NCBI RefSeq assembly: GCF_013122565.1
Contig: NZ_CP053258.1
Source: Escherichia coli
GTDB taxonomy: Bacteria > Pseudomonadota > Gammaproteobacteria > Enterobacterales > Enterobacteriaceae
Reading direction: 5' to 3' (one strand)
Length of the DNA: 64,000 nt
The notes under the pieces are model-generated. The model searched no databases, had not been told where the DNA came from, and worked only from the letters and a program-made list of their open reading frames with translations. Below are positions 1 to 39,296 of this stretch, in pieces (position 1 is the stretch's first letter; each line of letters begins with the position of its first letter). Made by a program: the position numbers and the translations under genes.

Positions 1-506
1 TTCACCACGTTACGGCAAAGATGCAGCAAACTTAACACCAGCGGCTGAATGATATTTTGCTCCAGCGGCGAACGGCTAAGATGGGTGAGGGCGGTAAGCA
101 TCGCTTCACCTTCACCGCGTTGCAGGCTGGGCAGCTGGATCTGGCGAGCAGGATGCAACAACGACGTGGTGCGGCTATCGTAAAATGATAACCCAAGCCA
201 GGTCGGTGAGAACACCAGGCTTAACAGCATCACCGGTTTGTTGTTGACCGGTAAATTAGCCGCGCGCGCCGGAATAAACAGCATTTCTCCTTCCACCAAA
301 CGTTGCTGCTTTGCTTCCAGCAGATTGCCGTATTCGCCGCGCAGCACGATATCCAGACGGGGAAAATCAATACATAAACTGCCCACCGGCAACGAGGCAG
401 GCTGGCTGGCAAACCAGACGCGCCCCAGTAGTTGCGGGTTAAGCACCAGGCCGCTGAACAGATCGGCGAAAAATTGTTGATCGGCGGGCAAGCCTGGTGC
501 TTTCAT
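1..506 (-). CDS. ypdC: AraC-family transcriptional regulator YpdC, N-terminal part; gene continues past the window start
   Basis: Minus-strand frame open from ATG at 506 to the window edge, translating MKAPGLPADQQFFADLFSGLVLNPQLLG...; lies directly downstream of ypdA-ypdB as in E. coli. Not in the ORF track because it is truncated. Confidence 0.7.
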   Translation of the reverse strand, partial: MKAPGLPADQQFFADLFSGLVLNPQLLGRVWFASQPASLPVGSLCIDFPRLDIVLRGEYGNLLEAKQQRLVEGEMLFIPARAANLPVNNKPVMLLSLVFSPTWLGLSFYDSRTTSLLHPARQIQLPSLQRGEGEAMLTALTHLSRSPLEQNIIQPLVLSLLHLCRNVV

Positions 507-4580: not shown

Positions 4581-4600
4581 ACACCGACCTCAAAAATGCA

Positions 4601-4629: not shown

Positions 4630-4644
4630 TTGCACAGTTTGCTT

Positions 4645-4716: not shown

Positions 4717-5071
4717 TTTACATCTCTCCGCGTAATTACTGTTACGCCTGAATGACTTCATTACACCTGATACAGTGAGTTGACACCGGGCAAAACGACC
4801 TTAAAAGTCCTGTATTTTACCGTGGGCATCACCCCAGAATTCTGAGCTAAACTGCTCCAGACGGCGCTAATGTACGCCTAAAATTGAAACGAGACAATAG
4901 GCATTTTCTTATTTACTTTTAGTAACTTACAGGTGTCTCATATCGGCGACAGTTTAATTTCTGACGGTAATAATTAGAGATTCAGCGAAGGAAAAAACCT
5001 TAAGAAAAAAGCCATAAAAACCATGGGGTTATTATGGCTGATTTGAGGAGGGAAAGAGTCAGAGCAGTTTG

Positions 5072-5992
5072 TTAAATGTATAGCGACGATTCTCCCACCG
5101 GGCGCGTTTTAAAGCGACGGTGGATCCAGAGGTACTGCTCCGGTGCGCGCATGATCTCTTTTTCGATAATCTTGTTCATATAGGCAGCGGCTTGATTTTC
5201 ATCTGCCGGGTAGCCTTCCATCTCTGGGGTGATGAACAAACGATATCCGCTGTAATCCGCTTTTCTTACCATCGTTACGGTCAACATGGCTGCGCCAGAG
5301 AGACGGGAAAGGACATACGTACCATTGGTTGTGGCGACATTTTCCACCGCAAAGAACGGTGCGAAGGAGCTGCCTTTACGACCATAATCCTGATCGGGAG
5401 CAAACCATACCGCTTCACCTTTCTTCAGTGCACTGACAATGCCGCGCAGATTATTTCTGCCGATCATCGCTTTGTTAGAACGCATGCGACCACGGGTCTG
5501 CACCCATTCCATCAGCTGATTATTATGTGGACGATAGGTAGCCATCATTGGTTGGCACAGTCCCATCACGCGACCGCCCAGTTCCAGCGACATAAAATGG
5601 ACGCCGACAACCATTACGCCGCGATTTTGCATTTGTGCGCGTTTAAGGTTATCCAACCCTTCAACATCAAACCATTTACGTACGCGACTGTCGGGCCAGA
5701 ACCACGCCATGCCGGTTTCTACCAGCGCCATGCCGAGTGAACGAAAGTTTTCGGCAATCATCTTCTCGCGTTCTTCCGCAGAATGCTGCGGGAAACAAAG
5801 TTCCAGGTTTTTACGGGCGATAGATTCACGACGTTTCAGGAATGGTCGCGCCATTGCGCCAATACGCGTGCCGAGAAAGCAGAGAACAGGGTATGGAAGT
5901 TGTACCCAAAGCCAGAGTACACCAAGCCCAAACCATGTGAGCCAGTAGCGAGGATGTAGAAACTCGCGGGAAAATTTGCAATGTGGAAACAT
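5072..5992 (-). CDS. lpxP: Lipid A palmitoleoyltransferase LpxP (cold-induced acyltransferase)
   Basis: ORF 5072..6058; internal ATG at 5992 gives MFPHCKFSREFLHPRYWLTWFGLG..., the 306-aa LpxP-like acyltransferase. Confidence 0.9.
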   Translation of the reverse strand: MFPHCKFSREFLHPRYWLTWFGLGVLWLWVQLPYPVLCFLGTRIGAMARPFLKRRESIARKNLELCFPQHSAEEREKMIAENFRSLGMALVETGMAWFWPDSRVRKWFDVEGLDNLKRAQMQNRGVMVVGVHFMSLELGGRVMGLCQPMMATYRPHNNQLMEWVQTRGRMRSNKAMIGRNNLRGIVSALKKGEAVWFAPDQDYGRKGSSFAPFFAVENVATTNGTYVLSRLSGAAMLTVTMVRKADYSGYRLFITPEMEGYPADENQAAAYMNKIIEKEIMRAPEQYLWIHRRFKTRPVGESSLYI

Positions 5993-6344
5993 AGTTACCT
6001 TCTGTAGATACGAATTGTTGTATCGCAGAAGATTCCATGTCGACAGCGGTACACTCAATTGGTTGGGCCATCATGTACGACAATGGTTCCTGTAAAGAGT
6101 GTAAAGACTAGTCAGGACATAACCACGAGGAGCATGAATGCGGTGGCTCTACTTTATCACTGGCTGACTGCTTTCAGCTACTGATTATTAATCGTGCAAA
6201 GTAAAAAATTTTCCCCACGCAATAGTGTTGCATTTAACATGCTGTTTTAATTGATGCTTAGCAAAAATTGCCAGAGGTTAAGGATTGTCTTACTATTAAA
6301 GTGACTGAAGTTACAGGTTTTTTAGCGCGGCAGGAGGTTGAGCT

Positions 6345-6587
6345 ATGATTTATTTATGGATGTTTCTCGCCCTGTGTATTGTCTGCGTAAGCGGCTACAT
6401 TGGTCAGGTCCTGAACGTGGTATCGGCGGTCTCTTCTTTCTTCGGCATGGTGATCCTCGCTGCACTCATTTATTACTTCACCATGTGGTTAACTGGCGGT
6501 AATGAACTGGTGACGGGGATATTTATGTTTCTTGCCCCGGCTTGTGGCTTGATGATTCGCTTTATGGTGGGGTATGGCAGGCGCTAG
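6345..6587 (+). CDS. yfdY: Small inner-membrane protein YfdY
   Basis: 80-aa hydrophobic ORF MIYLWMFLALCIVCVSGY...; conserved position between lpxP and ypdI. Confidence 0.8.
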   Translation: MIYLWMFLALCIVCVSGYIGQVLNVVSAVSSFFGMVILAALIYYFTMWLTGGNELVTGIFMFLAPACGLMIRFMVGYGRR

Positions 6588-6663
6588 TGGGTCAGGATGG
6601 TTCATTTGGGCAGGTGTTCACATCAGCATCAGGCATGATTGTTCACCTGCCATGTGACAGACG

Positions 6664-6939
6664 CTATCGCACAGGATGAATAAGATAATTCGCCTTTGTC
6701 GGAAAAGGGGGCGGAATTTCTTCTGTGAGGTTTAATGGTGGCGCATCTTCTCTCATTTTTAACAAAATCGCCTGTGATGGCTGAAATTTTGTAGAGTGAG
6801 TTGTCGTCATCGCTGACGTTTTTTCCGTCTCTTTATAGCTCGCCTCACTACCACCACCAGAAATAGAAAATGCAAAAACATTGCATGCCATAATAGAGAC
6901 CAATAAAAATAAGCTAAAAAGCATTAAGTTTACTTTCAT
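6664..6939 (-). CDS. ypdI: Putative lipoprotein YpdI
   Basis: 91-aa ORF with signal peptide and lipobox-like ...IMAC; position matches E. coli ypdI. Confidence 0.75.
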   Translation of the reverse strand: MKVNLMLFSLFLLVSIMACNVFAFSISGGGSEASYKETEKTSAMTTTHSTKFQPSQAILLKMREDAPPLNLTEEIPPPFPTKANYLIHPVR

Positions 6940-7081
6940 AGAAAGTTATCCTGAAAATGGTTCACTGAAAACCTACGATGTTATGGCTGTATTTACATAT
7001 AATTAATCAGTATTTACATCGATATAATAAATGATATCTCTTTGTGGTATATAAGAATAGTTCTCTGTGACAGGAAGCAGA

Positions 7082-7099
7082 TTCCTACAATTGTAAGAC
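7082..7099. promoter_or_regulatory. Putative EvgA box upstream of yfdX
   Basis: ttcctaca-at-tgtaagac matches the 18-bp EvgA inverted-repeat consensus TTCYTACA-NN-TGTARGAA at 17 of 18 positions, about 135 bp upstream of yfdX. Confidence 0.45.
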
Positions 7100-7234
7100 T
7101 AAAATACTTCTTGCGATAATAACTACAACTGTAAGACAATCCTTTCAAAATGACCGTTGCTCTCTGATTTCTCATTTCATGCTCACCCAATATGATGGCG
7201 GCGTTTTCTAAAACTGTTAAAGAATGAGGTAAGT

Positions 7235-7870
7235 ATGAAACGTTTAATTATGGCCACGATGGTCACAGCAATTCTGGCATCTTCAACTGTATGGGCTGCT
7301 GATAATGCTCCGGTAGCGGCACAACAGCAAACTCAGCAAGTTCAGCAAACCCAGAAAACGGCAGCGGCAGCAGAGCGTATCTCTGAACAAGGTTTATATG
7401 CGATGCGTGACGTGCAGGTAGCGCGCCTGGCTCTGTTTCATGGCGATCCGGAAAAGGCAAAAGAACTGACCAATGAAGCTTCAGCTTTGTTGTCAGATGA
7501 CAGTACCGAATGGGCAAAGTTCGCTAAGCCAGGTAAAAAGACCAATCTCAATGATGACCAATATATTGTCATTAATGCATCTGTCGGAATTTCTGAGAGT
7601 TATGTAGCGACACCCGAAAAAGAAGCCGCGATAAAAATTGCCAATGAAAAAATGGCGAAAGGGGATAAAAAGGGCGCAATGGAAGAGCTTCGCCTGGCCG
7701 GTGTTGGTGTAATGGAAAACCAATATCTGATGCCGCTTAAACAGACTCGTAATGCACTTGCTGATGCGCAGAAACTGCTTGATAAAAAGCAATACTACGA
7801 GGCAAACCTGGCGCTTAAAGGTGCGGAAGATGGAATCATCGTCGATAGCGAAGCACTGTTTGTGAACTAA
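7235..7870 (+). CDS. yfdX: Periplasmic protein YfdX (EvgA-regulated)
   Basis: 211-aa ORF with N-terminal signal peptide ([21 protein letters not shown]); matches E. coli YfdX. Confidence 0.9.
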
Positions 7871-8380
7871 TGCTGACAGGCAGTATATTGATGTAAAGGA
7901 TTTAACTCCCTCCAGCCGACAATTTTTTATGACCACAATACGACAGGTTGTGGTCATAAAATTATTTGGCGCTCGCGGTTCTATAAACTCGCATTTTATC
8001 TTCCTCAAAGTAAACCGCAATAACCCGTGTCATCACAAATCATTTATTATGTTATGTTTTATGGTACGCTTTAAAAAGCGTAATCATACCCTTACTTGTA
8101 AATCACCGGCGCTTCTTACAGTTGTAAGAATAACATCACAAATGTCGCGGCTCTCTCTGATTACCGCGAACCAATATTTATCATATTCTTCTTTTCGTCC
8201 TCACTACTTACCATGCAGAAAGGAATTGGAAGTAGCGATGAAATGATTTTCAGTACTTGATACAGGAATTTAAAAATATCGAGTGCAGCTACGACGATAT
8301 TTTGCGGATTATTTATAGAGGCGTTATGTCTTAAATAAACGCTAAATTAACACATATTTAATTAACTAATAGGTATTGCT

Positions 8381-9631
8381 ATGTCAACTCCACTTCAAGG
8401 AATTAAAGTTCTCGATTTCACCGGTGTGCAATCTGGCCCATCTTGTACTCAAATGCTGGCCTGGTTTGGCGCTGACGTCATTAAAATTGAACGTCCCGGC
8501 GTTGGTGACGTAACGCGTCACCAGCTGCGAGATATTCCTGATATCGATGCGCTTTACTTCACCATGCTTAACAGTAACAAACGTTCTATTGAATTAAATA
8601 CCAAAACAGCGGAAGGCAAAGAGGTAATGGAAAAGCTGATCCGCGAAGCTGATATCTTAGTCGAGAACTTTCATCCTGGGGCCATTGATCACATGGGCTT
8701 CACCTGGGAGCATATTCAAGAAATCAATCCACGTCTGATTTTTGGTTCGATCAAAGGGTTTGATGAGTGTTCGCCTTATGTGAATGTAAAAGCCTATGAA
8801 AACGTTGCTCAGGCAGCGGGTGGCGCGGCATCCACTACGGGTTTTTGGGACGGTCCGCCGCTGGTAAGCGCTGCAGCGTTGGGTGACAGCAACACCGGAA
8901 TGCATTTACTGATCGGTTTACTTGCTGCTTTGCTGCATCGCGAAAAAACGGGGCGTGGGCAACGAGTCACCATGTCAATGCAGGATGCCGTATTGAACCT
9001 TTGCCGCGTGAAATTACGCGACCAGCAGCGTCTCGATAAATTGGGTTATCTGGAAGAATACCCGCAGTATCCGAATGGCACATTTGGTGATGCAGTTCCC
9101 CGCGGCGGTAATGCGGGTGGTGGCGGTCAGCCTGGCTGGATCCTGAAATGTAAAGGTTGGGAAACCGATCCTAACGCCTATATTTATTTCACTATTCAGG
9201 AGCAAAACTGGGAAAACACCTGTAAAGCCATTGGCAAACCAGAATGGATTACCGATCCGGCATACAGTACAGCCCATGCCCGACAGCCACATATTTTCGA
9301 TATTTTTGCTGAAATCGAAAAATACACTGTCACTATTGATAAACATGAAGCGGTGGCCTATTTGACTCAATTTGATATTCCTTGTGCACCGGTTTTAAGT
9401 ATGAAAGAAATTTCACTTGATCCCTCTTTGCGCCAAAGTGGCAGTGTTGTCGAAGTGGAACAACCATTGCGTGGAAAATATCTGACAGTTGGTTGTCCAA
9501 TGAAATTCTCTGCCTTTACGCCGGATATTAAAGCTGCACCGCTATTAGGTGAACATACCGCTGCGGTATTGCGGGAGCTGGGTTATAGCGACGATGAAAT
9601 TGCTGCAATGAAGCAAAACCACGCCATCTGA
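8381..9631 (+). CDS. frc: Formyl-CoA:oxalate CoA-transferase Frc
   Basis: 416-aa ORF, family III CoA-transferase; N-terminus [20 protein letters not shown] matches Frc/YfdW. Confidence 0.93.
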
Positions 9632-9684
9632 TATTAACGGGAGCTTCTGGCTCCCAATTTATAAAAATTTCGAGGTTATTAATC

Positions 9685-11379
9685 ATGTCAGATCAACTTC
9701 AAATGACAGATGGTATGCATATCATCGTTGAAGCATTAAAACAGAATAATATTGACACTATTTATGGTGTTGTAGGTATTCCTGTGACGGATATGGCACG
9801 CCATGCCCAGGCGGAAGGCATTCGTTATATTGGTTTTCGTCATGAGCAGTCGGCAGGCTATGCCGCTGCGGCAAGCGGTTTTCTTACCCAAAAACCGGGG
9901 ATCTGCCTGACAGTGTCTGCGCCAGGATTCCTCAATGGTTTGACCGCATTGGCCAACGCAACGGTAAATGGTTTTCCGATGATCATGATTAGCGGCTCCA
10001 GCGACCGCGCGATCGTCGACCTACAGCAAGGTGATTATGAAGAGCTGGACCAAATGAATGCGGCAAAACCGTATGCCAAAGCAGCATTTCGCGTTAATCA
10101 GCCGCAGGATCTTGGCATTGCATTGGCACGCGCTATCCGGGTCTCAGTATCGGGTCGCCCTGGCGGAGTTTATCTTGATTTGCCTGCAAATGTCCTGGCC
10201 GCGACGATGGAAAAAGACGAAGCGTTAACCACGATTGTAAAAGTTGAAAATCCGTCGCCAGCATTATTGCCATGCCCGAAGTCAGTCACTAGCGCAATTT
10301 CGCTTTTAGCAAAAGCTGAACGACCATTAGTTATCCTTGGCAAAGGCGCGGCGTATTCACAAGCTGATGAACAGCTTCGTGAATTTATTGAAAGTGCCCA
10401 GATTCCATTCCTGCCAATGTCTATGGCGAAAGGGATCCTCGAAGATACGCATCCACTTTCTGCGGCAGCTGCGCGTTCGTTTGCCCTGGCAAATGCTGAC
10501 GTTGTCATGCTTGTTGGTGCACGATTGAATTGGTTACTGGCACACGGTAAAAAAGGATGGGCGGCAGATACACAGTTTATTCAACTGGATATTGAACCGC
10601 AGGAAATTGACAGCAACCGCCCCATTGCTGTGCCAGTCGTTGGCGATATTGCATCCAGTATGCAAGGTATGCTGGCAGAACTGAAACAAAACACATTTAC
10701 GACTCCACTGGTATGGCGCGATATTTTAAATATCCACAAGCAGCAAAATGCACAAAAAATGCATGAAAAATTAAGTACAGATACCCAACCATTAAATTAC
10801 TTTAATGCATTAAGTGCTGTGCGCGATGTATTGCGCGAGAACCAGGATATTTATTTAGTTAATGAAGGTGCAAATACCCTGGATAATGCACGAAATATTA
10901 TTGATATGTATAAACCACGTCGTCGTCTGGATTGTGGTACCTGGGGTGTCATGGGTATCGGTATGGGCTATGCCATCGGTGCTAGCGTGACCTCTGGTTC
11001 TCCGGTTGTCGCTATTGAAGGTGATAGTGCTTTTGGTTTCAGTGGGATGGAGATTGAAACGATTTGTCGATATAACCTGCCGGTGACGATCGTTATTTTT
11101 AATAATGGCGGCATCTACAGAGGAGACGGTGTTGACCTCAGCGGCGCTGGTGCACCATCGCCAACGGATCTGTTGCACCATGCAAGGTATGACAAATTAA
11201 TGGATGCGTTTCGTGGCGTTGGCTATAACGTCACCACGACAGATGAACTTCGTCATGCTTTAACCACCGGAATTCAGTCGCGCAAACCGACCATTATTAA
11301 TGTGGTCATCGACCCAGCAGCAGGAACTGAAAGTGGCCATATTACCAAACTTAACCCAAAACAAGTCGCTGGTAATTAA
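9685..11379 (+). CDS. oxc: Oxalyl-CoA decarboxylase Oxc (TPP-dependent)
   Basis: 564-aa ORF with thiamine-pyrophosphate enzyme motifs (GDSAFGFSGMEIETICRYNLPV...NNGG). Confidence 0.93.
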   Translation: MSDQLQMTDGMHIIVEALKQNNIDTIYGVVGIPVTDMARHAQAEGIRYIGFRHEQSAGYAAAASGFLTQKPGICLTVSAPGFLNGLTALANATVNGFPMIMISGSSDRAIVDLQQGDYEELDQMNAAKPYAKAAFRVNQPQDLGIALARAIRVSVSGRPGGVYLDLPANVLAATMEKDEALTTIVKVENPSPALLPCPKSVTSAISLLAKAERPLVILGKGAAYSQADEQLREFIESAQIPFLPMSMAKGILEDTHPLSAAAARSFALANADVVMLVGARLNWLLAHGKKGWAADTQFIQLDIEPQEIDSNRPIAVPVVGDIASSMQGMLAELKQNTFTTPLVWRDILNIHKQQNAQKMHEKLSTDTQPLNYFNALSAVRDVLRENQDIYLVNEGANTLDNARNIIDMYKPRRRLDCGTWGVMGIGMGYAIGASVTSGSPVVAIEGDSAFGFSGMEIETICRYNLPVTIVIFNNGGIYRGDGVDLSGAGAPSPTDLLHHARYDKLMDAFRGVGYNVTTTDELRHALTTGIQSRKPTIINVVIDPAAGTESGHITKLNPKQVAGN

Positions 11380-11448
11380 ATACTGACATCGTCTCCTCTT
11401 GCCAACTTATTATGCGATGGTGAGGGGACCCTTATCGGAAATACTATT

Positions 11449-12393
11449 ATGCTAACATTTTTTATTGGCGATTTATTGCCTATTATCGTAATCATGCTGT
11501 TGGGTTATTTTAGCGGCAGACGAGAAACTTTTTCAGAAGATCAAGCCCGGGCATTTAATAAACTGGTATTAAACTACGCTCTTCCTGCGGCTCTATTTGT
11601 TTCTATTACCAGGGCAAACAGGGAAATGATTTTTGCGGACACTCGTCTGACCCTTGTATCACTTGTGGTTATTGTCGGATGTTTCTTTTTCTCCTGGTTC
11701 GGTTGCTACAAATTTTTTAAACGTACTCATGCAGAAGCAGCTGTATGTGCATTAATTGCGGGTTCACCTACCATTGGATTCCTGGGGTTTGCAGTTCTCG
11801 ATCCTATTTATGGTGATTCCGTATCAACAGGTTTAGTGGTAGCAATTATTTCTATTATTGTTAACGCAATTACTATTCCTATTGGTCTGTATTTGCTGAA
11901 TCCTTCCTCAGGAGCGGATGGTAAGAAGAATAGTAATCTGAGCGCATTAATTTCTGCGGCAAAGGAGCCAGTAGTATGGGCACCTGTTCTGGCAACGATC
12001 CTGGTGTTGGTTGGGGTAAAAATTCCGGCAGCATGGGACCCAACCTTTAATCTGATTGCGAAGGCTAACTCAGGGGTAGCGGTATTCGCTGCGGGGTTGA
12101 CTCTGGCTGCACATAAATTCGAGTTCAGTGCCGAAATTGCTTATAACACCTTCCTGAAGCTGATTCTGATGCCACTGGCGCTGCTTCTCGTTGGTATGGC
12201 ATGTCATTTGAACAGCGAACATTTGCAGATGATGGTACTGGCAGGCGCATTACCGCCGGCATTCTCCGGAATCATTATTGCCAGCCGGTTTAATGTCTAC
12301 ACCCGCACTGGTACAGCGTCATTGGCTGTGAGCGTACTGGGCTTTGTCGTCACGGCTCCCTTGTGGATTTATGTCAGTCGACTGGTTTCATAA
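11449..12393 (+). CDS. yfdV: AEC-family transporter YfdV
   Basis: 314-aa polytopic membrane ORF; conserved position between oxc and yfdE. Confidence 0.88.
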
Positions 12394-12421
12394 TTAATCA
12401 TGTTATTGATTTTACATAAAT

Positions 12422-12452
12422 GCCGAAGTGTCTTTTCACCTTCGGCTTTTTT
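12422..12452 (+). terminator. Rho-independent terminator-like hairpin after yfdV
   Basis: gccgaagtg...caccttcggc stem followed by TTTTTT. Confidence 0.5.
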
Positions 12453-12466
12453 CAAGGCATAAGAAA

Positions 12467-13612
12467 ATGACAAATAATGAATGTAAAGGGCCGTTTGAAG
12501 GCTTATTAGTTATCGATATGACACATGTCCTTAATGGACCTTTCGGAACTCAACTTCTTTGTAATATGGGCGCAAGGGTAATTAAAGTTGAGCCGCCGGG
12601 TCATGGTGATGATACCCGCACATTTGGTCCCTATGTGGATGGACAGTCACTCTATTACAGTTTTATTAATCATGGCAAAGAGAGTGTGGTTCTTGATTTA
12701 AAGAATGATCACGATAAAAGTATATTTATAAATATGCTTAAACAAGCTGATGTATTAGCTGAGAATTTTCGCCCAGGTACAATGGAAAAACTGGGGTTTT
12801 CATGGGAAAGGTTACAAGAAATCAACCCGCGCCTCATATATGCTTCATCGTCGGGTTTCGGGCATACCGGTCCGTTAAAAGATGCTCCTGCCTACGATAC
12901 CATTATTCAGGCAATGAGCGGGATAATGATGGAAACAGGGTACCCTGATGCTCCTCCAGTGCGTGTTGGTACCTCTCTTGCGGATCTATGCGGCGGTGTC
13001 TACTTATTCAGCGGAATCGTGAGTGCACTTTATGGCCGCGAAAAGAGCCAGAGAGGGGCGCATGTCGATATAGCGATGTTTGATGCCACGCTGAGTTTTC
13101 TGGAGCATGGTCTGATGGCATATATTGCGACAGGGAAGTCACCACAACGTCTGGGAAATCGCCATCCCTACATGGCACCTTTTGATGTTTTCGATACTCA
13201 GGATAAGCCGATTACGATTTGTTGTGGTAATGACAAGCTTTTTTCTGCGTTATGCCAGGCACTGGAGCTTACGGAACTGGTTAATGATCCCCGATTTAGC
13301 AGCAATATTTTACGTGTACAAAACCAGGCTATTCTTAAACAATATATTGAGCGGACGTTAAAAACGCAGGCAGCTGAAGTTTGGTTAGCCAAAATACATG
13401 AAGTTGGTGTGCCTGTCGCGCCGTTATTAAGTGTGGCTGAGGCCATTAATTTGCCACAAACTCAGGCGAGAAATATGTTGATTGAAGCCGGAGGAATAAT
13501 GATGCCGGGTAATCCGATAAAAATCAGCGGCTGCGCGGACCCGCATGTTATGCCGGGAGCGGCAACGCTCGACCAGCATGGGGAACAAATTCGCCAGGAG
13601 TTCTCATCATAA
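12467..13612 (+). CDS. yfdE: Acetyl-CoA:oxalate CoA-transferase YfdE (family III CoA-transferase)
   Basis: ORF 12428..13612; ATG at 12467 gives MTNNECKGPFEGLLVIDMTHVLNGPFG..., a paralogue of Frc. Confidence 0.9.
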   Translation: MTNNECKGPFEGLLVIDMTHVLNGPFGTQLLCNMGARVIKVEPPGHGDDTRTFGPYVDGQSLYYSFINHGKESVVLDLKNDHDKSIFINMLKQADVLAENFRPGTMEKLGFSWERLQEINPRLIYASSSGFGHTGPLKDAPAYDTIIQAMSGIMMETGYPDAPPVRVGTSLADLCGGVYLFSGIVSALYGREKSQRGAHVDIAMFDATLSFLEHGLMAYIATGKSPQRLGNRHPYMAPFDVFDTQDKPITICCGNDKLFSALCQALELTELVNDPRFSSNILRVQNQAILKQYIERTLKTQAAEVWLAKIHEVGVPVAPLLSVAEAINLPQTQARNMLIEAGGIMMPGNPIKISGCADPHVMPGAATLDQHGEQIRQEFSS

Positions 13613-13667
13613 ATGTAAGATGTGCTGGTAAATAGCTCCCACATTTGAACATTGTGGGAGCCGCTAT

Positions 13668-16600
13668 TTAGTCTTTTTGTTGACAGAAAACAGAAATCTC
13701 CTGGTCCAGCTCTGCAATGTGTTCTTTTACAGAGTTCAGCAACTGAAGAATTTCAGGCTTACTGTCATCTGAAACAGGTGTTATTTCTAACTGATGGCTA
13801 ATATTAATCAACTTTTGCAAATTCAGGATGTTAGCCGCACCGTGGATGCGATGAATACACTGATGGAAAGTTCTGTTATCGCCAGCTTCTAGTGCATGAA
13901 ACGCAGCGGGTAGATCTTTATGCGTTTCATGCTGGAAAGTCATGAGAATCTCCTGCATCAGTTGTAGATCGTTCGCCGTATTATTTTTCAGGGCTTCGAT
14001 ATCAAGGTGGCGATACTGAGGTGCAATATGCGCAACCTGGTGTAACTGACTTAAATGTGTTTTCAGTACATCCAGGGTCAACGGTTTGAACAAACATAAG
14101 TTCATGCCGCAATTTAACCCTTTTTCACGTTCGTTAGCCTGTGCGTTGGCAGTAAGCCCCCAGATGGGTAAGGAAGAATTTTGCTCACGGAGTTTGCGAG
14201 TCAACTCAAAACCATCCATATTCGGCATATTAACGTCAGTAATAAGCAGATCATAATGTTGCATACTGACTTTGTGTAGCGCTTGCACACCATCAGTGGC
14301 TTCATCAACATCATATCCTAATAGATTTAGCTGGCGTTTGAGTAATAGCCTGTTGGTTGGATGATCATCCGCGATTAATATGCTCAACTTTTCAGGCAGT
14401 GTGATGGGTTGTTCTGCCTTTGCCTCGACAGTCGCCACTTGTTGGATAATTTCTACCGGGATTGTGATCGTAAATGTTGTTCCTATGCCTGGATGACTTT
14501 CTAATGACAAATCGCCCTGCATGTTTTTAATTAATTCTTTGCAGATCATTAAGCCTAAACCAGAACCTGTTTGCTGACGACCTGCACTTGTTTGGCTATA
14601 ACGTTTAAACAGTTGTTGTTGTTCTTCCTGTGATAATCCACTTCCAGAATCCATAATCGTCATTTTGATTACAGCGTGGTTGTCATCAATGTGAACCAGG
14701 GAGGTCGTAATTTTTACTGCCCCCTCGGTGGTAAATTTGAGAGCATTGCTCAGTAAATTAGATAAGACCTGCTTAAACGCCTGAGGGTCGATCTTAACCA
14801 GGTAATGTTCAGGAAACGTACTGCTGCAACTTAATGCGATCGATTTGCTTGCAGCAATCGCACCGAAAGAGTGACAAGTGTTCTGGACTAAAGTAGGGAT
14901 ATCGACCCATTGTGGTTGAAGTTGATAGTTACCCGATTCAATTTTGTCGACATCAAGGATTTCACCAATTAAGCCGAGGAGTGATTGTCCGGTGGCGTAG
15001 GCAAGTGAAATCGCCTCCACCCGTTGCTCCTTGCTAAGACCAGAACCCGACAGAAGTTCCAGGAAGCCCATAATGGAGCTTATTGGTGTTCTTATTTCGT
15101 GACTCATTGTTGCCAGAAACTGGCTTTTTGCGACAGTTGCATTGATCGCTTTATTTCTCTCTACTTCGAGTGCATGAATTAAATCACGCGTCTCGGTAAT
15201 ATCTTGCCAACCACAAATATAAACAGCATGATCGCTGGCTGGCAGATTGCATAATGTATGCCAGTGATTAATGCATCTTTTCTCGATGCCATTATCAATT
15301 TCAAATACCTGTGTGTATATTGTTCGATTTTCTTTCGTTTCTGCTGTGACTTCATGCGCATTAGAAAAAACATCTTTAAAGGGGGAGTCACTGTTTTCTA
15401 ATGGTAACATTGCATTTTTGTAGTAATCCGCAGTGAAATAATGTTCAAAAGCACTATTATGACTAATGACATTACCTTGCCAGTTTACAACATAAGTTGG
15501 ATTCGGTAAGGAATCCGAGAGTGCTTTCCGGAATGATATTTGGTTTTCTAAATCACCCTGAATGACTTTACGACGACGAACTGAGCGTAACAGGTAGAAT
15601 CCCCATAAAAGGCTACTGCCAACTAATAAAACGGATAATGTCGTAACAATATAAAATTGCTCGCTATAGAGGTCCCATGTGTCAATGGTCACATTGGGCA
15701 TTTTAATCCATTTTTCCGTCAGGCGCAGAACTTCGCTTGGGGGAATTGCATTCAGTGCTTTATTAATAATATCCTTAAGTTCTGGTTCTCCACGAGGAAA
15801 AGCGAACGAAAGCGATGCATTCGGAACGCCAGGAATAAGAAAATGATAAAGCTCATTAGGATAGTAATGGTCGATCATATAACGCGAATTTAGCTGTGTC
15901 GCGACCAGAGCATCAAGTTCACCTTCCTTAACCTTGTGAAATGCAGCGCTGGCATTATCGACTTGTATCCACTCAACCTCCGGATACATCTCTTTTAATT
16001 GCGAATGCAGCTCATAATAATATGGAATGGCAACTTTCATTCCTTTTTTTAATGTTTGTTCACTGTCAGGCGCTTTTTGCATGACAAAAACGTATGGTGT
16101 TGTTATGAAAGCTTCTGCAAATGAAACATTATTTTCTCGATCTTCACTATAAATAGCGCCAGGTATTATATCCCATCCACCGGGGCTAAGCTGTGTTCCG
16201 GCATGGATATTGTGTGAAACGGTGATCGGAGAAAAATTTAAACCTGTTTGCAAGGTAATAATATTAAGAATATCCCCCATAACGCCCCGAACCGAGCCAT
16301 TTTCATCCGTCATAGAATAGGGAGGAGAGTAAGGATTTTCCAGCACCTTTAAATCGGGATGTTGTTTAATCCACTGTTTTTCATGTTCAGTGAGTTCTAA
16401 TGGTTTGTTCAGAAAGGCCAGGTTTCCTGTATCAAGCCAATTTTGTGATACTTCATAGCGAACTTCATTTGTTAAAGCATCAACAAATCTATTGAGTACT
16501 TCATTAAGAATGACAGATTCTTTTCTGGTCAAGAAAAAATTATATTGACGCGGCGAGTTATAATATTTCACTACATTTAAGGAGTGAGTGAAATAGCGGG

Positions 16601-17261
16601 AAATCATACTGCTGGTAATGATGTTACTACCAATAAAGTAATCATTCTGTCCGGCTGATACGGATGCTAATGCCTGATATAAATTTGTAAAAGAGATAAT
16701 TGTTGCTTTTGGAAATGATTGATGAATTACCTCGTCTGGGGGGTAATTTGCTACCCGAGCAATATTTACTGGTTTTGGTGAGGTAAGCGGTCGCATTGAG
16801 TCGTGAAGGGTGGTTACCAGCGCCGGAAAGGTAATTATCAATGGTTTGGTTGCAGCAATGTCATTATTAAGAGGCGGCGAAGTAACTAAATGTGATAACA
16901 CTATATCGACTTCACCTTCTGTAAGCGCGTCCATTGCTTTTTGATGATCTGCGTATTCCCGGAGTGTTAATTTGATATTTAACGCTCTTTTTAAAAGATT
17001 TAAATAATCAGCATTAATACCACGAACCTGTTGCTGCGAATCGGTATGCAACAACGTAGCCGTTTGGGACTTGTGTACTGCAATCACAAGATTTTTTTTG
17101 CTCGCTAACCAACGTAATTCCTTGTTGCTCAGACGTACTGGATCAAGTGTGACACGGTTGTTACTACTGATGCCACGATATTCGATGTAATCTTCGTCTG
17201 CGAAACTTATGGTCGACCAAAGACTACAACAGAGAAGAAAAAAATAGGGTAAAAACTTCAT
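13668..17261 (-). CDS. evgS: Hybrid sensor histidine kinase EvgS
   Basis: 1197-aa ORF with signal peptide, two periplasmic binding-protein-like domains, HisKA/HATPase, receiver and HPt domains. Confidence 0.95.
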   Translation of the reverse strand: MKFLPYFFLLCCSLWSTISFADEDYIEYRGISSNNRVTLDPVRLSNKELRWLASKKNLVIAVHKSQTATLLHTDSQQQVRGINADYLNLLKRALNIKLTLREYADHQKAMDALTEGEVDIVLSHLVTSPPLNNDIAATKPLIITFPALVTTLHDSMRPLTSPKPVNIARVANYPPDEVIHQSFPKATIISFTNLYQALASVSAGQNDYFIGSNIITSSMISRYFTHSLNVVKYYNSPRQYNFFLTRKESVILNEVLNRFVDALTNEVRYEVSQNWLDTGNLAFLNKPLELTEHEKQWIKQHPDLKVLENPYSPPYSMTDENGSVRGVMGDILNIITLQTGLNFSPITVSHNIHAGTQLSPGGWDIIPGAIYSEDRENNVSFAEAFITTPYVFVMQKAPDSEQTLKKGMKVAIPYYYELHSQLKEMYPEVEWIQVDNASAAFHKVKEGELDALVATQLNSRYMIDHYYPNELYHFLIPGVPNASLSFAFPRGEPELKDIINKALNAIPPSEVLRLTEKWIKMPNVTIDTWDLYSEQFYIVTTLSVLLVGSSLLWGFYLLRSVRRRKVIQGDLENQISFRKALSDSLPNPTYVVNWQGNVISHNSAFEHYFTADYYKNAMLPLENSDSPFKDVFSNAHEVTAETKENRTIYTQVFEIDNGIEKRCINHWHTLCNLPASDHAVYICGWQDITETRDLIHALEVERNKAINATVAKSQFLATMSHEIRTPISSIMGFLELLSGSGLSKEQRVEAISLAYATGQSLLGLIGEILDVDKIESGNYQLQPQWVDIPTLVQNTCHSFGAIAASKSIALSCSSTFPEHYLVKIDPQAFKQVLSNLLSNALKFTTEGAVKITTSLVHIDDNHAVIKMTIMDSGSGLSQEEQQQLFKRYSQTSAGRQQTGSGLGLMICKELIKNMQGDLSLESHPGIGTTFTITIPVEIIQQVATVEAKAEQPITLPEKLSILIADDHPTNRLLLKRQLNLLGYDVDEATDGVQALHKVSMQHYDLLITDVNMPNMDGFELTRKLREQNSSLPIWGLTANAQANEREKGLNCGMNLCLFKPLTLDVLKTHLSQLHQVAHIAPQYRHLDIEALKNNTANDLQLMQEILMTFQHETHKDLPAAFHALEAGDNRTFHQCIHRIHGAANILNLQKLINISHQLEITPVSDDSKPEILQLLNSVKEHIAELDQEISVFCQQKD

Positions 17262-17265
17262 GTGA

Positions 17266-17880
17266 TTAGCCGATTTTGTTACGTTGCGCGAATGTGTAAA
17301 GATCCATCAGTGATTTACATTCTAATTTTTCCATCAGGCGACTTTTATACGTGCTGACAGTTTTGTTGCTGATGAACATTTTTTCCGCAATGTCATTATT
17401 ATCCTTGCCATCAAGAATATACCTCATGACACTAATTTCTTGTTTCGATAAGGAGTCGAGTTTTTGCTGGTCGGACGTTAAACTTCCAACAAACCGGTTG
17501 AGAGAGAAGGGGAAATAGCAGTAGCCATTTTTTGCAGCTTCAATAGCCGCAATGATATTGTTCATGCCTTCTTTTTTACTCACGAATCCATTAGCGCCAG
17601 CATCAGCACAATGTTTCCCGTAAAAATGGTCATTTTTAGCGGAGACAATAATAATAATTCCGCTATATTGGCGCTTCCTCAGCGTTTCTAACACCTGGAT
17701 ACCGTTAACTCCGGGGATATCGACATCAATGATGACGATATCAGGCTTAAGTGTTTCCACCCGCTGAACGGCGCTTCCCCCTTCAGTCAACTCCGCTAAG
17801 ATTTCAATATCGTTTTTGATCAATAGATTACGAATTGCTGCGATAGCAAGAGGATGGTCATCAATAATTATTGCGTTCAT
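17266..17880 (-). CDS. evgA: Response regulator EvgA (NarL/FixJ family)
   Basis: 204-aa ORF with receiver domain (MNAIIIDDHPLAIAAIRNLL...) and C-terminal LuxR-type HTH. Confidence 0.95.
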   Translation of the reverse strand: MNAIIIDDHPLAIAAIRNLLIKNDIEILAELTEGGSAVQRVETLKPDIVIIDVDIPGVNGIQVLETLRKRQYSGIIIIVSAKNDHFYGKHCADAGANGFVSKKEGMNNIIAAIEAAKNGYCYFPFSLNRFVGSLTSDQQKLDSLSKQEISVMRYILDGKDNNDIAEKMFISNKTVSTYKSRLMEKLECKSLMDLYTFAQRNKIG

Positions 17881-18104
17881 AGATTATTCCCTTTGCAATG
17901 AAGCATCTCCCTTCTCCCTGTAGTAATACAGACATAAGGCGTCATCTCATTTTCTCAATAAAAATAAGAAAATCCGAGCTTCCTTTAAGATAATTCGAAA
18001 AGTATACCATATAAATAGTCGGCATAAATGAAATGTCAACAATAAAATTAGGGATTATACCGATGATTTATAGTTTCAAGTTAGCACTATAAGTCTTCTC
18101 ACTA

Positions 18105-18122
18105 ATCCTACAGGCGTAAGAA
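18105..18122. promoter_or_regulatory. Putative EvgA box in the evgA-emrK divergent intergenic region
   Basis: atcctaca-gg-cgtaagaa matches the EvgA 18-bp inverted-repeat consensus at 16 of 18 positions. Confidence 0.45.
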
Positions 18123-18295
18123 TTGTATTGCAAAGGCCACGGTTTAGTCCTCTGTTGTTTTTTTTGCACCTCATTTAAATTAGGCCTCCAACGTTCCTGG
18201 GATAATGTGCAACACATGCACTGTGTTTGATATGAAGAATGAATATTCTTTTCATTCAATTCATAAATTTCATCTACGCGAAATGAGAGATAATA

Positions 18296-19459
18296 GTGGA
18301 ACAGATTAATTCAAATAAAAAACATTCTAACAGAAGAAAATACTTTTCTTTATTGGCGATAGTTTTATTTATTGCGTTTTCAGGTGCTTATGCCTATTGG
18401 TCAATGGAATTAGAAGACATGATTAGTACAGATGACGCCTATGTCACGGGGAATGCAGATCCAATTTCTGCGCAAGTCTCAGGTAGTGTCACTGTCGTTA
18501 ATCATAAAGATACGAACTACGTTCGACAGGGTGACATTTTAGTTTCACTGGATAAAACTGATGCCACTATCGCACTCAATAAAGCTAAAAATAATCTGGC
18601 AAATATTGTTCGGCAAACGAATAAACTGTACTTACAGGATAAACAATACAGTGCCGAAGTCGCTTCAGCACGTATTCAGTATCAACAATCTTTAGAAGAT
18701 TATAACCGTCGTGTGCCTTTAGCGAAGCAGGGGGTTATTTCAAAAGAAACGCTGGAGCATACCAAAGATACGTTAATAAGTAGCAAAGCGGCATTGAATG
18801 CCGCTATCCAGGCTTATAAAGCGAATAAAGCTTTAGTAATGAACACACCATTAAACCGTCAGCCACAAGTCGTTGAAGCGGCGGATGCAACCAAAGAAGC
18901 CTGGTTGGCGCTTAAACGTACGGATATTAAGAGTCCGGTTACCGGCTATATTGCCCAGAGAAGTGTTCAGGTCGGCGAAACAGTGAGTCCCGGACAATCG
19001 TTAATGGCTGTCGTACCGGCACGTCAAATGTGGGTTAATGCCAACTTTAAAGAAACACAACTCACGGATGTACGGATTGGTCAATCGGTCAATATTATCA
19101 GCGATCTTTATGGTGAGAATGTTGTGTTTCATGGTCGGGTGACAGGGATCAATATGGGAACCGGTAATGCGTTCTCCTTATTACCTGCACAAAATGCGAC
19201 AGGGAACTGGATCAAAATCGTTCAGCGTGTACCGGTTGAAGTTTCTCTTGATCCAAAAGAACTCATGGAACACCCCTTGCGCATTGGTTTATCGATGACT
19301 GCAACTATTGATACGAAGAACGAAGACATTGCTGAGATGCCTGAGCTGGCTTCAACCGTGACGTCCATGCCGGCTTATACCAGTAAGGCTTTAGTTATCG
19401 ATACCAGTCCGATAGAAAAAGAAATTAGCAACATTATTTCGCATAATGGACAACTTTAA
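18296..19459 (+). CDS. emrK: Multidrug efflux membrane fusion protein EmrK
   Basis: 387-aa ORF with N-terminal TM helix and HlyD-like coiled-coil region; EmrA paralogue. Confidence 0.93.
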   Translation: MEQINSNKKHSNRRKYFSLLAIVLFIAFSGAYAYWSMELEDMISTDDAYVTGNADPISAQVSGSVTVVNHKDTNYVRQGDILVSLDKTDATIALNKAKNNLANIVRQTNKLYLQDKQYSAEVASARIQYQQSLEDYNRRVPLAKQGVISKETLEHTKDTLISSKAALNAAIQAYKANKALVMNTPLNRQPQVVEAADATKEAWLALKRTDIKSPVTGYIAQRSVQVGETVSPGQSLMAVVPARQMWVNANFKETQLTDVRIGQSVNIISDLYGENVVFHGRVTGINMGTGNAFSLLPAQNATGNWIKIVQRVPVEVSLDPKELMEHPLRIGLSMTATIDTKNEDIAEMPELASTVTSMPAYTSKALVIDTSPIEKEISNIISHNGQL

Positions 19460-20997
19460 TGGCAATTACTAAATCAACTCCGGCACCATTAACCGGTGGG
19501 ACGTTATGGTGCGTCACTATTGCATTATCATTAGCGACGTTTATGCAAATGTTGGATTCCACTATTTCTAACGTCGCAATACCGACAATATCTGGCTTTC
19601 TGGGAGCATCAACAGACGAAGGCACCTGGGTTATCACCTCGTTTGGCGTAGCAAATGCTATTGCGATCCCTGTTACCGGCAGGCTGGCACAAAGAATAGG
19701 CGAATTAAGGTTATTTTTACTTTCAGTCACTTTTTTTTCGCTGTCTTCATTAATGTGTAGTTTATCGACCAATCTTGATGTGCTGATATTTTTTAGAGTC
19801 GTTCAGGGATTAATGGCGGGGCCGTTAATTCCACTGTCACAGAGTTTATTATTAAGGAATTATCCACCAGAAAAAAGAACATTTGCTCTGGCATTATGGT
19901 CTATGACCGTGATTATCGCTCCGATATGTGGGCCGATATTGGGCGGTTATATTTGTGATAACTTTAGCTGGGGTTGGATATTTTTAATCAATGTCCCTAT
20001 GGGGATTATCGTCCTGACATTATGCTTAACCTTACTTAAAGGAAGAGAAACTGAGACTTCACCGGTCAAAATGAATCTACCAGGACTGACCCTGTTAGTG
20101 CTCGGTGTTGGTGGCTTGCAAATTATGCTTGATAAAGGGCGGGATCTGGATTGGTTCAACTCGAGTACAATAATAATATTAACAGTAGTATCAGTTATTT
20201 CTCTGATCTCTTTAGTCATTTGGGAGTCGACCTCAGAGAACCCGATTCTTGACCTCAGTTTGTTTAAGTCCCGTAACTTCACCATTGGTATTGTGAGTAT
20301 CACCTGCGCGTATTTATTTTACTCTGGAGCGATAGTCCTTATGCCGCAGTTACTCCAGGAAACGATGGGGTATAATGCGATATGGGCCGGGCTTGCTTAT
20401 GCGCCCATCGGCATCATGCCACTATTAATTTCACCTTTGATAGGACGTTATGGCAACAAAATTGACATGCGGGTGTTGGTGACATTTAGTTTTTTGATGT
20501 ATGCGGTTTGCTATTACTGGCGTTCTGTGACATTTATGCCAACGATTGATTTTACAGGTATCATTTTGCCGCAGTTTTTTCAGGGATTCGCCGTTGCCTG
20601 TTTCTTTTTACCCTTAACAACAATTTCGTTTTCAGGCTTGCCAGATAATAAATTTGCCAATGCCTCGAGTATGAGTAATTTTTTTCGTACCTTGTCAGGA
20701 TCAGTTGGTACGTCGTTGACAATGACGCTGTGGGGACGACGCGAATCGTTACACCATAGTCAGTTAACAGCAACCATCGATCAATTTAACCCGGTGTTTA
20801 ATTCATCGTCACAAATTATGGATAAATACTATGGTTCGCTTTCAGGAGTTCTTAATGAAATTAATAATGAAATAACCCAGCAGTCACTTTCTATTTCTGC
20901 AAATGAGATTTTCCGTATGGCGGCTATTGCTTTTATCTTACTTACGGTTTTGGTTTGGTTTGCGAAACCGCCGTTTACAGCGAAAGGCGTTGGGTGA
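19459..20997 (+). CDS. emrY: Multidrug efflux MFS transporter EmrY
   Basis: 512-aa 14-TM MFS ORF; start overlaps the emrK stop. Confidence 0.93.
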   Translation: MAITKSTPAPLTGGTLWCVTIALSLATFMQMLDSTISNVAIPTISGFLGASTDEGTWVITSFGVANAIAIPVTGRLAQRIGELRLFLLSVTFFSLSSLMCSLSTNLDVLIFFRVVQGLMAGPLIPLSQSLLLRNYPPEKRTFALALWSMTVIIAPICGPILGGYICDNFSWGWIFLINVPMGIIVLTLCLTLLKGRETETSPVKMNLPGLTLLVLGVGGLQIMLDKGRDLDWFNSSTIIILTVVSVISLISLVIWESTSENPILDLSLFKSRNFTIGIVSITCAYLFYSGAIVLMPQLLQETMGYNAIWAGLAYAPIGIMPLLISPLIGRYGNKIDMRVLVTFSFLMYAVCYYWRSVTFMPTIDFTGIILPQFFQGFAVACFFLPLTTISFSGLPDNKFANASSMSNFFRTLSGSVGTSLTMTLWGRRESLHHSQLTATIDQFNPVFNSSSQIMDKYYGSLSGVLNEINNEITQQSLSISANEIFRMAAIAFILLTVLVWFAKPPFTAKGVG

Positions 20998-21104
20998 TGG
21001 TAAAAGGAGGGGGTTATAGCAGGTAAGACCGGGGATCTTAAGTCTGCGCCATTGGCAGCATCGCTCACCCAAGGAAAGGATGGCGATGCTGAATTGAAAA
21101 TTAA

Positions 21105-22433
21105 TTAGTGGCCTTTTGCCAGATATTGCTCCATCTCTTCTTCCGGCACCATTCCACCTCCCGTCGCCCACACCAGATGAGTGGCATTATGCAGTTGTTC
21201 TGCGCTGAAACCGTGCATCTGTTGGTAACTTACTGATGCGCACACGCGCTGAGGCCCGGCCATACCCGCCAGTGCCGAAGGTTCAAGACGAATACCTTCT
21301 TCCTGCGCCAGCCAGCCAAGCATGTCATACATGGTTTGATCGCTAAGGGTGTAGAAGCCATCCAGTAGACGCTCCATTGCCCGCCCGACAAAGCCTGATG
21401 CGCGACCAACTGCAAGGCCATCCGCTGCGGTAAGGTTGTCGATACCAATATCCTGAACAGAAATCTGATCGTGTAATCCTGTATGGACGCCTAACAGCAT
21501 ACAAGGGGAGTGCGTTGGTTCGGCAAAAAAGCAGTGAACATGATCGCCAAATGCCAGTTTAAGCCCGAATGCGACGCCACCAGGACCACCGCCAACACCA
21601 CACGGCAGATAGACAAACAGAGGGTTATCAGCATCGACAATACGACCTTGCTCGGCAAATTGCGCTTTAAGACGCTGGCCTGCGACGGAATACCCAAGGA
21701 ACAACGTGCGGGAATTCTCGTCATCAATAAAGAAACAGTTCGGGTCAGACTGCGCTGCTTTACGTCCTTCCTCGACTGCAACACCATAATCTTGCTCATA
21801 TTCCACGACCGTAACGCCATGGCTGCGCAGTTTCGCTTTTTTCCATGCCCGGGCATCAGCAGACATATGTACTGTCACCTTAAAGCCAATGCGGGCGCTC
21901 ATAATGCCGATTGATAACCCCAGATTTCCGGTTGAGCCCACAGCAATGCTGTATTGGCTAAAGAACTGTTTAAACTCCGGAGAAAGCAGTTTGCTGTAGT
22001 CATCTTCAAGCGTCAGCAACCCCGCTTCCAGAGCCAGTTTTTCTGCATGTGCCAGGACTTCATAAATCCCGCCGCGTGCTTTTATGGAGCCGGAAATGGG
22101 CAAATGGCTATCTTTTTTCAGTAGCAGTTGCCCGCTGATCGGTTGTTGATATTCCTTTTCCAGCCGTTTTTGCATAGCCGGAATGGCAACCAGTTCTGAT
22201 TCAATAATCCCCCCAGTAGCAGCAGTTTCAGGAAATGCTTTTGCCAGATAGGGTGCAAAACGAGATAAGCGCGCATGGGCGTCCTGAACATCCTGTTCGG
22301 TCAGGCCAACATAAGGTAAACCTTCAGCCAATGAGGTCGTGTCAGGATTAAACCAGGTGGTTTCTTTAAGAGCAACCAGATCCTTTACCAACGGATACTG
22401 GGCGATGAGCGAGTTCATTTTAGCGTTTTCCAT
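21105..22433 (-). CDS. dsdA: D-serine dehydratase DsdA (PLP-dependent)
   Basis: 442-aa ORF with the PLP-lysine motif region SGSIKARGG. Confidence 0.95.
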
Positions 22434-22450
22434 AGTACGTCTCTTTGCGC

Positions 22451-36544: not shown

Positions 36545-36550
36545 TGTTTC

Positions 36551-39277: not shown

Positions 39278-39296
39278 CGTGATTAAGGAATGATCC

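Follow-up and report, generated by a model that had tools for sequence, protein, structure and literature searches.

Which promoters of the evgAS acid-response island does EvgA control in this strain of Escherichia coli, and through which sites? We addressed this question in a 64,000-nt stretch of E. coli chromosome (hereafter the window), the orientation of which is opposite to that of K-12 MG1655. According to the literature, mild acidity activates EvgS, a hybrid kinase, and EvgS in turn phosphorylates EvgA, a regulator of the NarL family; the pair was named after its likeness to BvgS/BvgA (PMC9496106). An earlier reading of the window (the original prediction) had placed evgSA between emrKY on one side and yfdX-frc-oxc-yfdV-yfdE on the other, and had called two 18-bp EvgA sites, one upstream of yfdX and one between evgA and emrK. 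The arrangement holds. Gene order, RefSeq homologues, 97.9% colinearity with K-12, and NCBIfam equivalogs all agree, and mark this as the canonical evgAS locus of E. coli, with these neighbors on its two sides. The locus, its regulator, the target operons, and the inverted-repeat box are established K-12 biology and already known. Overall, the stretch is very probably best explained as a canonical EvgS/EvgA acid-response locus together with an adjoining part of its direct regulon.

The EvgA box was modeled as an 18-bp inverted repeat, TTCYTACA-NN-TGTARGAA, i.e. two 8-bp half-sites separated by a 2-bp spacer (8-2-8). This consensus is said to go back to the 2003 work of Masuda and Church. Scanning the window with TTCYTACANNTGTARGAA and allowing up to three mismatches, we found four sites where 0.50 would be expected, a number reached in none of 100 shuffles. 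These four boxes, listed in Table 1, lie 107-260 bp ahead of start codons, all of them in the spacers preceding yfdX, frc, and emrK. Both sites of the original prediction are among them and are supported as true matches to this inverted repeat: the one at 7082-7099 upstream of yfdX (box 1) has a single mismatch, and the one at 18105-18122 between evgA and emrK (the emrK box) has two. The list of two was nevertheless incomplete, as it missed the frc box (8113-8130), which is the best match in the window, and a weaker second box ahead of yfdX (box 2, 7120-7137).

The same 8-2-8 box is found in K-12 upstream of three other known direct EvgA targets, safA, ydeP, and yegR. We therefore trained a weight matrix on these three K-12 sites only, all of which are outside the window, and the frc box, the emrK box, and box 1 came out as the top three positions of the 64 kb. 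The matrix scan that had been proposed as a check on the two called sites thus ranks box 1 third and the emrK box second. The shuffle maximum for the matrix score was 12.2 ± 2.2 bits, and 21 bits were reached in one of 200 shuffles. A consensus-free OOPS (one site per sequence) search of six EvgA-regulated intergenic regions returned the same sites. When the spacer was set to 0, 1, or 3-7 bp, zero sites were found in the window or in the K-12 safA, ydeP, and yegR loci; only a spacer of 2 bp yields any. Support for the 8-2-8 architecture does not depend on the consensus used in the first scan. Moreover, because EvgA is identical to K-12 EvgA, the K-12 binding specificity applies here. A matrix match at 34789-34806, in the fadJ-sixA spacer, was rejected since its 10.6 bits are at noise level.

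We then compared the boxes across nine sequences (the window, L006, K-12, OW1E2, ST131, O157:H7, CUVET19-1993, N44, and PT62). Half-site positions are variable in 5 of 64 cases, compared with 21% of intergenic columns (Fisher p = 0.0098), whereas 4 of 8 spacer positions are variable (Fisher p = 0.0067 versus half-sites). Constraint on the half-sites with a free spacer is the pattern expected of a dimer site, the 2-bp spacer of which would be uncontacted. Among the matches listed in a search of species-representative genomes with EvgS, a list filled by unrelated hybrid kinases such as BarA, L006 is the only true orthologous locus outside typical E. coli. It shows 89.8% nucleotide identity over 18.9 kb, with an EvgS of 91% amino acid (aa) identity, and all four boxes are present. 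Box 1 is identical in L006, as it is in K-12, and the frc box differs in its spacer only, both in L006 and across the nine sequences. In box 2, CTACA-NN-TGTAAGA is kept in L006, as in all nine sequences, with the spacer changing from AC to GT; the second base of the box changes from A to C, at a position that was already a consensus mismatch. In the emrK box, both mismatches have turned into consensus bases, giving TTCCTACAGGTGTAAGAA. Changes in L006 are therefore confined to spacers, outermost box positions, and one non-consensus position of box 2, or go towards the consensus. With respect to K-12, box 1, the frc box, and the emrK box are the same base for base, and the last base of box 2 is C here and T in K-12. 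The original prediction had named a wrong 2-bp spacer as what would undo its site calls. As the half-sites are spared and the spacer is variable, this concern is answered: the 2-bp spacer is right, since other spacers give no sites, variation concentrates in the spacer, and the K-12 targets share the 8-2-8 layout.

The distance between box and promoter also follows a regular pattern. Promoters were anchored on the box and read towards the regulated gene. In 6/6 promoters, i.e. yfdX (from box 2), frc, emrK, safA, ydeP, and yegR, the first base of a TAnnnT hexamer is found 53 or 54 nt past the box; other offsets give at most 4/6, and 0 of 5000 shuffles reach 6/6. In addition, TC[CT]T[AC] occurs at a fixed offset in 5/7 modules, against a background density of 0.8%, with TCCTA/TCTTA in matching register at safA, ydeP, yegR, and emrK. 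A ydeP construct described previously used a 178-nt leader (PMC11210196), which puts the start exactly where this rule predicts it, with the box center at -74.5. From the hexamer distance, we infer that box centers would lie near -74 (about -73.5 or -74.5), as at NarL-type 7-2-7 sites. Transcription would accordingly begin at about 7017 (minus strand) for ypdI, 7203 for yfdX, 8196 for frc, and 18188 for emrK. Papers on promoters using systematic evolution of ligands by exponential enrichment (SELEX) and a Reg-Seq preprint contain no usable starts for yfdX, frc, or emrK. In its fullest form the pattern would mean that the ypdI-yfdX spacer consists of two back-to-back EvgA modules, and that all direct EvgA promoters share one rigid module composed of the box, 25 nt, a TCYTA-like third half-site by the -35, and a -10 at 53-54 nt. 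It might further suggest a second EvgA unit contacting RNA polymerase, as at BvgA promoters. We put this full scheme forward as a speculative possibility, which is rather doubtful as a whole. In the open-access literature (primary EvgA papers and RegulonDB/EcoCyc were outside the scope), we found no statement of the fixed box-promoter distance, the third half-site, or direct EvgA control of ypdI, all of which may already be described.

By analogy with K-12, whose EvgA is identical, an EvgA dimer would bind the 18-bp inverted repeat and activate the adjoining promoters. The frc box would act on frc-oxc-yfdV-yfdE and the emrK box on emrKY; box 2 would be the promoter-proximal site of yfdX, and box 1 would act on ypdI, perhaps aiding box 2. 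As described in the literature, Frc, Oxc, YfdE, and YfdV function in oxalate/formyl-CoA-dependent acid tolerance, YfdX is periplasmic, and EmrKY is a major facilitator superfamily (MFS) efflux pump.

The assignment of the two boxes between ypdI and yfdX comes from their geometry. The register of the yfdX -10 fits box 2 and not box 1, which makes box 2 the likely promoter-proximal yfdX site. Read towards yfdX, box 1 has no -10-like hexamer at the shared distance (GACCGTTG at +53..60), and it would sit near -112.5 from the yfdX start. Read towards ypdI, it displays the full downstream module seen at safA, ydeP, yegR, and emrK, at about -73.5 from the predicted ypdI promoter. In K-12, ypdI mRNA was reported at 1.1 reads per kilobase per million (rpkm) at pH 7.6, 11.1 at pH 5.8, and 2.9 at pH 4.4, and emrK mRNA at 2.5, 24.2, and 3.6 rpkm, respectively (PMC10746267, Table S3). 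The acid profile of ypdI, up about 10-fold at pH 5.8, matches that of emrK. In an array of glutathione (GSH)-exposed cells, ypdI was up 5.5-fold, with yfdX, yegR, and ydeO (PMC5811628). On the evidence of register and motif, box 1 probably activates the divergent ypdI, which may be an unlisted direct EvgA target, and it may help the weak box 2 cooperatively. The originally called site at 7082-7099 is thus a real box in the yfdX spacer, but its register fits ypdI, and its assignment to yfdX is probably incomplete. In a competing explanation, box 1 alone would be the EvgA site activating yfdX, box 2 would be a chance half-match, and ypdI would be no direct target. Box 1 is indeed far the better match (1 versus 3 mismatches, 15.2 versus 10.2 bits) and is the de novo choice, and the inverted repeats mentioned in PMC3720670 are before yfdX and yfdWUVE, with no mention of two sites at yfdX. 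However, the hexamer missing downstream of box 1 is found exactly there for box 2 (TATGAT), the half-site cores of box 2 are kept in 9/9 sequences while its spacer changes, and the module of box 1 points to a gene that is acid-induced like emrK. We consider box 1 acting alone a possible but rather unlikely explanation. Far less credible is a class II yfdX promoter, in which box 1 would overlap a -35 TTGTAA at 7091-7096, followed by an 18-bp spacer and a TG-extended GATAAT at 7115-7120, so that transcription would begin near 7127 and leave about 108 nt of leader. This candidate was listed by the promoter scan, with 9/12 matches plus the TG extension, but that scan is not enriched over shuffles. 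Furthermore, box 2 would then cover +1, which would suit repression and not the strong EvgA activation reported for yfdX, and the other five promoters are without a -10 at that distance from the box. Such a promoter is, in our view, quite improbable.

For the emrK box, it has to be considered that the site is palindromic and lies within a shared divergent spacer, so that it might mainly serve evgAS autoregulation rather than emrKY. Positive autoregulation of evgAS was reportedly described by Tanabe et al. in 1998. However, the module is lacking at the fixed distance when the box is read towards evgA (AACTTGAA at +23 and CCTAATTT at +53), whereas towards emrK there is TCCTC at +26 and TAAATT at +54. 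An evgA leader of -114 has been described (PMC11210196), and leaders of 114 or 124 nt are used in the literature; the 114-nt leader implies a start from which the box is 119.5 bp away (-119.5). Moreover, EvgA is described as binding the emrK promoter and as a direct regulator of both this promoter and that of yfdX (PMC5706723, PMC9496106). A role mainly in autoregulation is consequently improbable, although the same box could both autoregulate evgAS and activate emrKY. The most general objection, that the box matches arose by chance and have no regulatory role in this strain, draws on the fact that short motifs do arise by chance in general, as the single shuffle that reached 21 bits illustrates. 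It would have to account for three independent top-ranked sites, all in the spacers of known EvgA targets, identical to K-12, and conserved in a lineage of 90% identity, in a strain whose EvgA is that of K-12. Consensus scan, matrix ranking, conservation, and de novo search effectively refute chance occurrence, to which we give next to no credence. The same spacer also contains a perfect TATAAT (18059..18054, minus strand) directed towards evgA, about 174-179 nt ahead of the ATG of this gene. Neither the 114-nt nor the 124-nt leader fits this position, and the hexamer may belong to a further evgA promoter or have arisen by chance.

Several observations weigh against the preferred explanation, in which all four boxes are EvgA sites and the two yfdX-side boxes serve different promoters. 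For this strain, all of it rests on sequence and on the K-12 literature, and each box is a predicted binding site. Of the nine sequences compared, eight come from E. coli and are 96-99% identical, which limits the power of the conservation analysis. Box 2, with 10.2 bits, is at the window-wide noise level, yet reaches roughly p = 0.007 inside the 295-bp ypdI-yfdX spacer, and the de novo search picks box 1, not box 2, in that spacer. A generic sigma-70 promoter/terminator scan showed no enrichment over shuffles, and all -10/-35 elements are predictions only. Because several of the promoters look like paralogues (yfdX with frc, safA with ydeP), the 6/6 and 5/7 statistics overstate independence. 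The value of -74.5 is anchored by a sole start, that of ydeP, which was itself deduced from a construct description and not from mapping. Finally, the acid and GSH induction of ypdI is correlative, and could be due to read-through or be indirect.

In the original prediction, yfdX-frc-oxc-yfdV-yfdE had been treated as one cluster. The order is right, but yfdX is set apart from frc-oxc-yfdV-yfdE by a strong hairpin and by an EvgA box dedicated to the latter, so that the two are probably transcribed as distinct units. The hairpin (7925-7961) is a likely terminator that would insulate yfdX from the frc promoter. It has been reported that yfdX and yfdWUVE are each preceded by their own EvgA-bound inverted repeat, the latter being placed in the legend of Fig. 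2 (PMC3720670), which fits separate EvgA-activated units. Two hairpin positions that are paired in the stem, 7932 and 7954, are each variable among strains. A 105-aa open reading frame (ORF) in this spacer, at 7929-8246, was treated as spurious, as it has no Pfam match and overlaps both the terminator hairpin and the frc box. The predicted frc leader is long (about 185 nt), and within the yfdX-frc spacer it is 8150-8330 that varies most with respect to K-12, with changes clustered at 8318-8329. Long leaders are likewise seen for ydeP, which has been reported as a CsrA target, and for emrK, the translation efficiency (TE) of which drops at pH 5.8.

The genes of the island are intact. Positions 4137-23635 of the window are colinear with NC_000913.3 2,497,500-2,478,000, with 97.9% identity over the 19.5-kb alignment and two small gaps. 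The evgAS stretch is found in 5421 of 5426 complete E. coli genomes, and the closest of these is 99.1-99.3% identical over it. All ORFs of the island have the K-12 length and zero internal stops. The oxalate/formyl-CoA cluster (frc-oxc-yfdV-yfdE) is complete, with all family models above cut-off, in line with the claim that the oxalate genes are intact. As for the interval 6664-20997, which had been given as the island, its gene content is right, but position 6664 marks where ypdI ends, and this gene had gone unmentioned. The evgA-evgS operon, with its evgL leader, is divergent from emrKY and adjoins yfdE; translational coupling between evgL and evgA has been described (PMC11210196). The emrK stop and emrY start overlap at 19459, and the two genes display the layout of an MFS tripartite efflux pump. 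EvgS has the expected architecture, with periplasmic domains and histidine kinase, receiver, and Hpt domains. It differs from K-12 EvgS by 19 of 1197 residues (98.4% identity), and its F577 is wild type, indicating that it is not the constitutive evgS1 allele. Acid responsiveness of EvgS differs between E. coli strains (PMC5706723). At 98.4% identity, the allele in the window lies between strains reported to be responsive (groups A and E, PMC5706723) and below B2-level divergence. EvgA matches the structures PDB 5F64 and 8ZWN at E = 5e-132; 5F64, 8ZWN, and 3F6C are EvgA entries. A search against Rfam identified no RNA family within the island, a tRNA-Arg being the sole match in the 64-kb window.

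Table 1. Coordinates of the EvgA boxes, predicted promoter elements, and genes of the evgAS island, numbered from the first nucleotide of the window.
Feature	Position	Strand	Description
ypdI	6664-6939	-	91-aa lipoprotein gene, divergent from yfdX; ORF and RefSeq annotation of homologous locus; intact, 5 aa differences versus K-12
Predicted ypdI -10	7024-7029	-	TATTAT; 53-58 nt past box 1 on minus strand; identical in 9/9 sequences
TCTTA element	7052-7056	-	26-30 nt past box 1 on minus strand; conserved in 9/9 sequences
EvgA box 1	7082-7099		TTCCTACAATTGTAAGAC; 1 mismatch to TTCYTACANNTGTARGAA; 15.2 bits, rank 3 in 64 kb; chosen by de novo motif search
EvgA box 2	7120-7137		TAACTACAACTGTAAGAC; 3 mismatches; 10.2 bits; center 38 bp from box 1; weaker
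Predicted yfdX -10	7191-7196	+	TATGAT; 54-59 nt past box 2; -35 TTCTCA 7169-7174; promoter scan; invariant in 9 sequences
yfdX	7235-7870	+	211 aa; NCBIfam equivalog NF007645, 379 bits; 100% identical to K-12
Hairpin	7925-7961	+	Perfect 15-bp stem, 55 nt past yfdX stop, then TTATTTGG; RNA fold -25.7 kcal/mol, z = -7.7
frc box	8113-8130		TTCTTACAGTTGTAAGAA; 0 mismatches; 22.3 bits, rank 1 in window; 260 bp before frc
Predicted frc -10-like	8184-8189	+	TATTCT; invariant in 9 sequences; alternatives TATCAT 8179-8184, CATATT 8182-8187
frc	8381-9631	+	Formyl-CoA transferase; TIGR03253 above cut-off, full length; 1 residue difference versus K-12
oxc	9685-11379	+	Oxalyl-CoA decarboxylase; TIGR03254 above cut-off, full length; 1 residue difference versus K-12
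yfdV	11449-12393	+	Transporter YfdV; NF007384 above cut-off, full length; 100% identical to K-12
yfdE	12467-13612	+	CoA:oxalate CoA-transferase (acetyl-CoA:oxalate); NF008511 above cut-off, full length; 5 residue differences versus K-12
evgS	13668-17261	-	Hybrid sensor kinase, 1197 aa; NF007420 equivalog, 2881 bits (cut-off 1995), covers 1-1197/1197
evgA	17266-17880	-	NarL/FixJ-family response regulator, 204 aa; NF007419 equivalog, 437.9 bits (cut-off 251); 204/204 residues identical to K-12
evgL	17877-17906	-	9-codon leader ORF overlapping evgA start codon; annotated in K-12; MLHCKGNNL identical here
Inferred evgA transcription start	17994	-	114 nt before ATG; -10 TATACT 18006..18001; leader length from PMC11210196
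emrK box	18105-18122		ATCCTACAGGCGTAAGAA; 2 mismatches to TTCYTACANNTGTARGAA; 19.2 bits, rank 2; between evgA and emrK
Predicted emrK -10-like	18176-18181	+	TAAATT; 54-59 nt past box; invariant in 9 sequences
emrK	18296-19459	+	TIGR00998 EmrA/EmrK periplasmic adaptor, 486.9 bits, above cut-off; 1 aa difference versus K-12
emrY	19459-20997	+	TIGR00711 DHA2/EmrB permease, 571.2 bits, above cut-off; 1 aa difference versus K-12

How does this island compare with known systems? The evgAS-emrKY/yfdX-frc-oxc-yfdV-yfdE region of K-12 MG1655 (b2367-b2376) has the same genes in the same order and orientation, with identical EvgA, EvgL, YfdX, and YfdV; the differences are about 2% nucleotide divergence, the 19 EvgS substitutions, and the last base of box 2. 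Like the EvgA box, the 7-2-7 sites of NarL/NarP are inverted repeats in which 2 bp separate the half-sites, and the distance from the start that we infer for the EvgA box is similar to theirs. The NarL/NarP site at the nrf promoter, for instance, is centered at -74.5. The half-sites nevertheless differ in length (8 versus 7 bp) and sequence, and the signal is acid rather than nitrate. Although EvgA matches the NarL structure 1A04, the NCBIfam models for NarL, FimZ, and UhpA are matched below cut-off, and EvgA constitutes its own equivalog family. BvgS/BvgA of Bordetella and KvgS/KvgA of Klebsiella are homologous pairs of a hybrid kinase and a NarL-family regulator, with different regulons (virulence versus acid and efflux functions). 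BvgA promoters contain a high-affinity inverted repeat and lower-affinity sites downstream. The TCYTA found 26 nt past EvgA boxes resembles these downstream sites, and a second EvgA unit binding there is a hypothesis that we draw from this likeness only.

Elsewhere in the window, several features set this strain apart from K-12. A copy of IS621 (47803-49080; ORF 47908-48888, minus strand), encoding DEDD_Tnp_IS110 and Transposase_20 domains, lies between yfcL and mnmC. This site is empty in K-12, and matches spanning the junctions were obtained for only about 26 of 5426 genomes. As a member of the IS110 family, IS621 is of the type known for bridge-RNA-guided recombination. At 24000-25186, dsdC is followed by the tRNA-Arg(CCU) gene argW (25036-25110) and then by yfdC; the strain lacks CPS-53/KpLE1, a cryptic prophage of 10 kb in K-12, and the argW attachment site is therefore empty. 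The yfc chaperone-usher fimbrial operon (35943-47803) shows just 87% identity to K-12, and its usher ORF (36614-39277, 887 aa) is intact, unlike yfcU of K-12, which is a pseudogene. The yfdF region (27349-29705) is also divergent, with 85.7% identity to K-12 across 28273-29705, and its ORF at 27349-28641 (430 aa, versus 352 aa for K-12 YfdF) has no Pfam match. Three observations concern other genomes. A 551-bp contig in a Terrisporobacter petrolearius assembly (L007, NZ_JAHZMO010000116.1) encodes EvgS residues 25-207 with 98% identity, and almost certainly stems from contamination with E. coli DNA. In the O157:H7 strain ECP17-46, yfdE is frameshifted (L085 17030-18171), and in the pigeon strain PT62, the complete genome closest to the window, an IS1 interrupts ypdI (L088 10562-11500).

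For genome annotation, these findings are of little import, since they amount to textbook E. coli regulation recognized from raw sequence. What they add is a catalogue of EvgA boxes in the island that is now complete and statistically supported, the perfect frc box included. The fixed distance between box and promoter is a testable rule, which reassigns the two boxes on the yfdX side and predicts ypdI as a direct EvgA target. If true, this rule would sharpen the prediction of EvgA regulons in other strains, which would be useful as EvgS signaling varies between lineages (PMC5706723).

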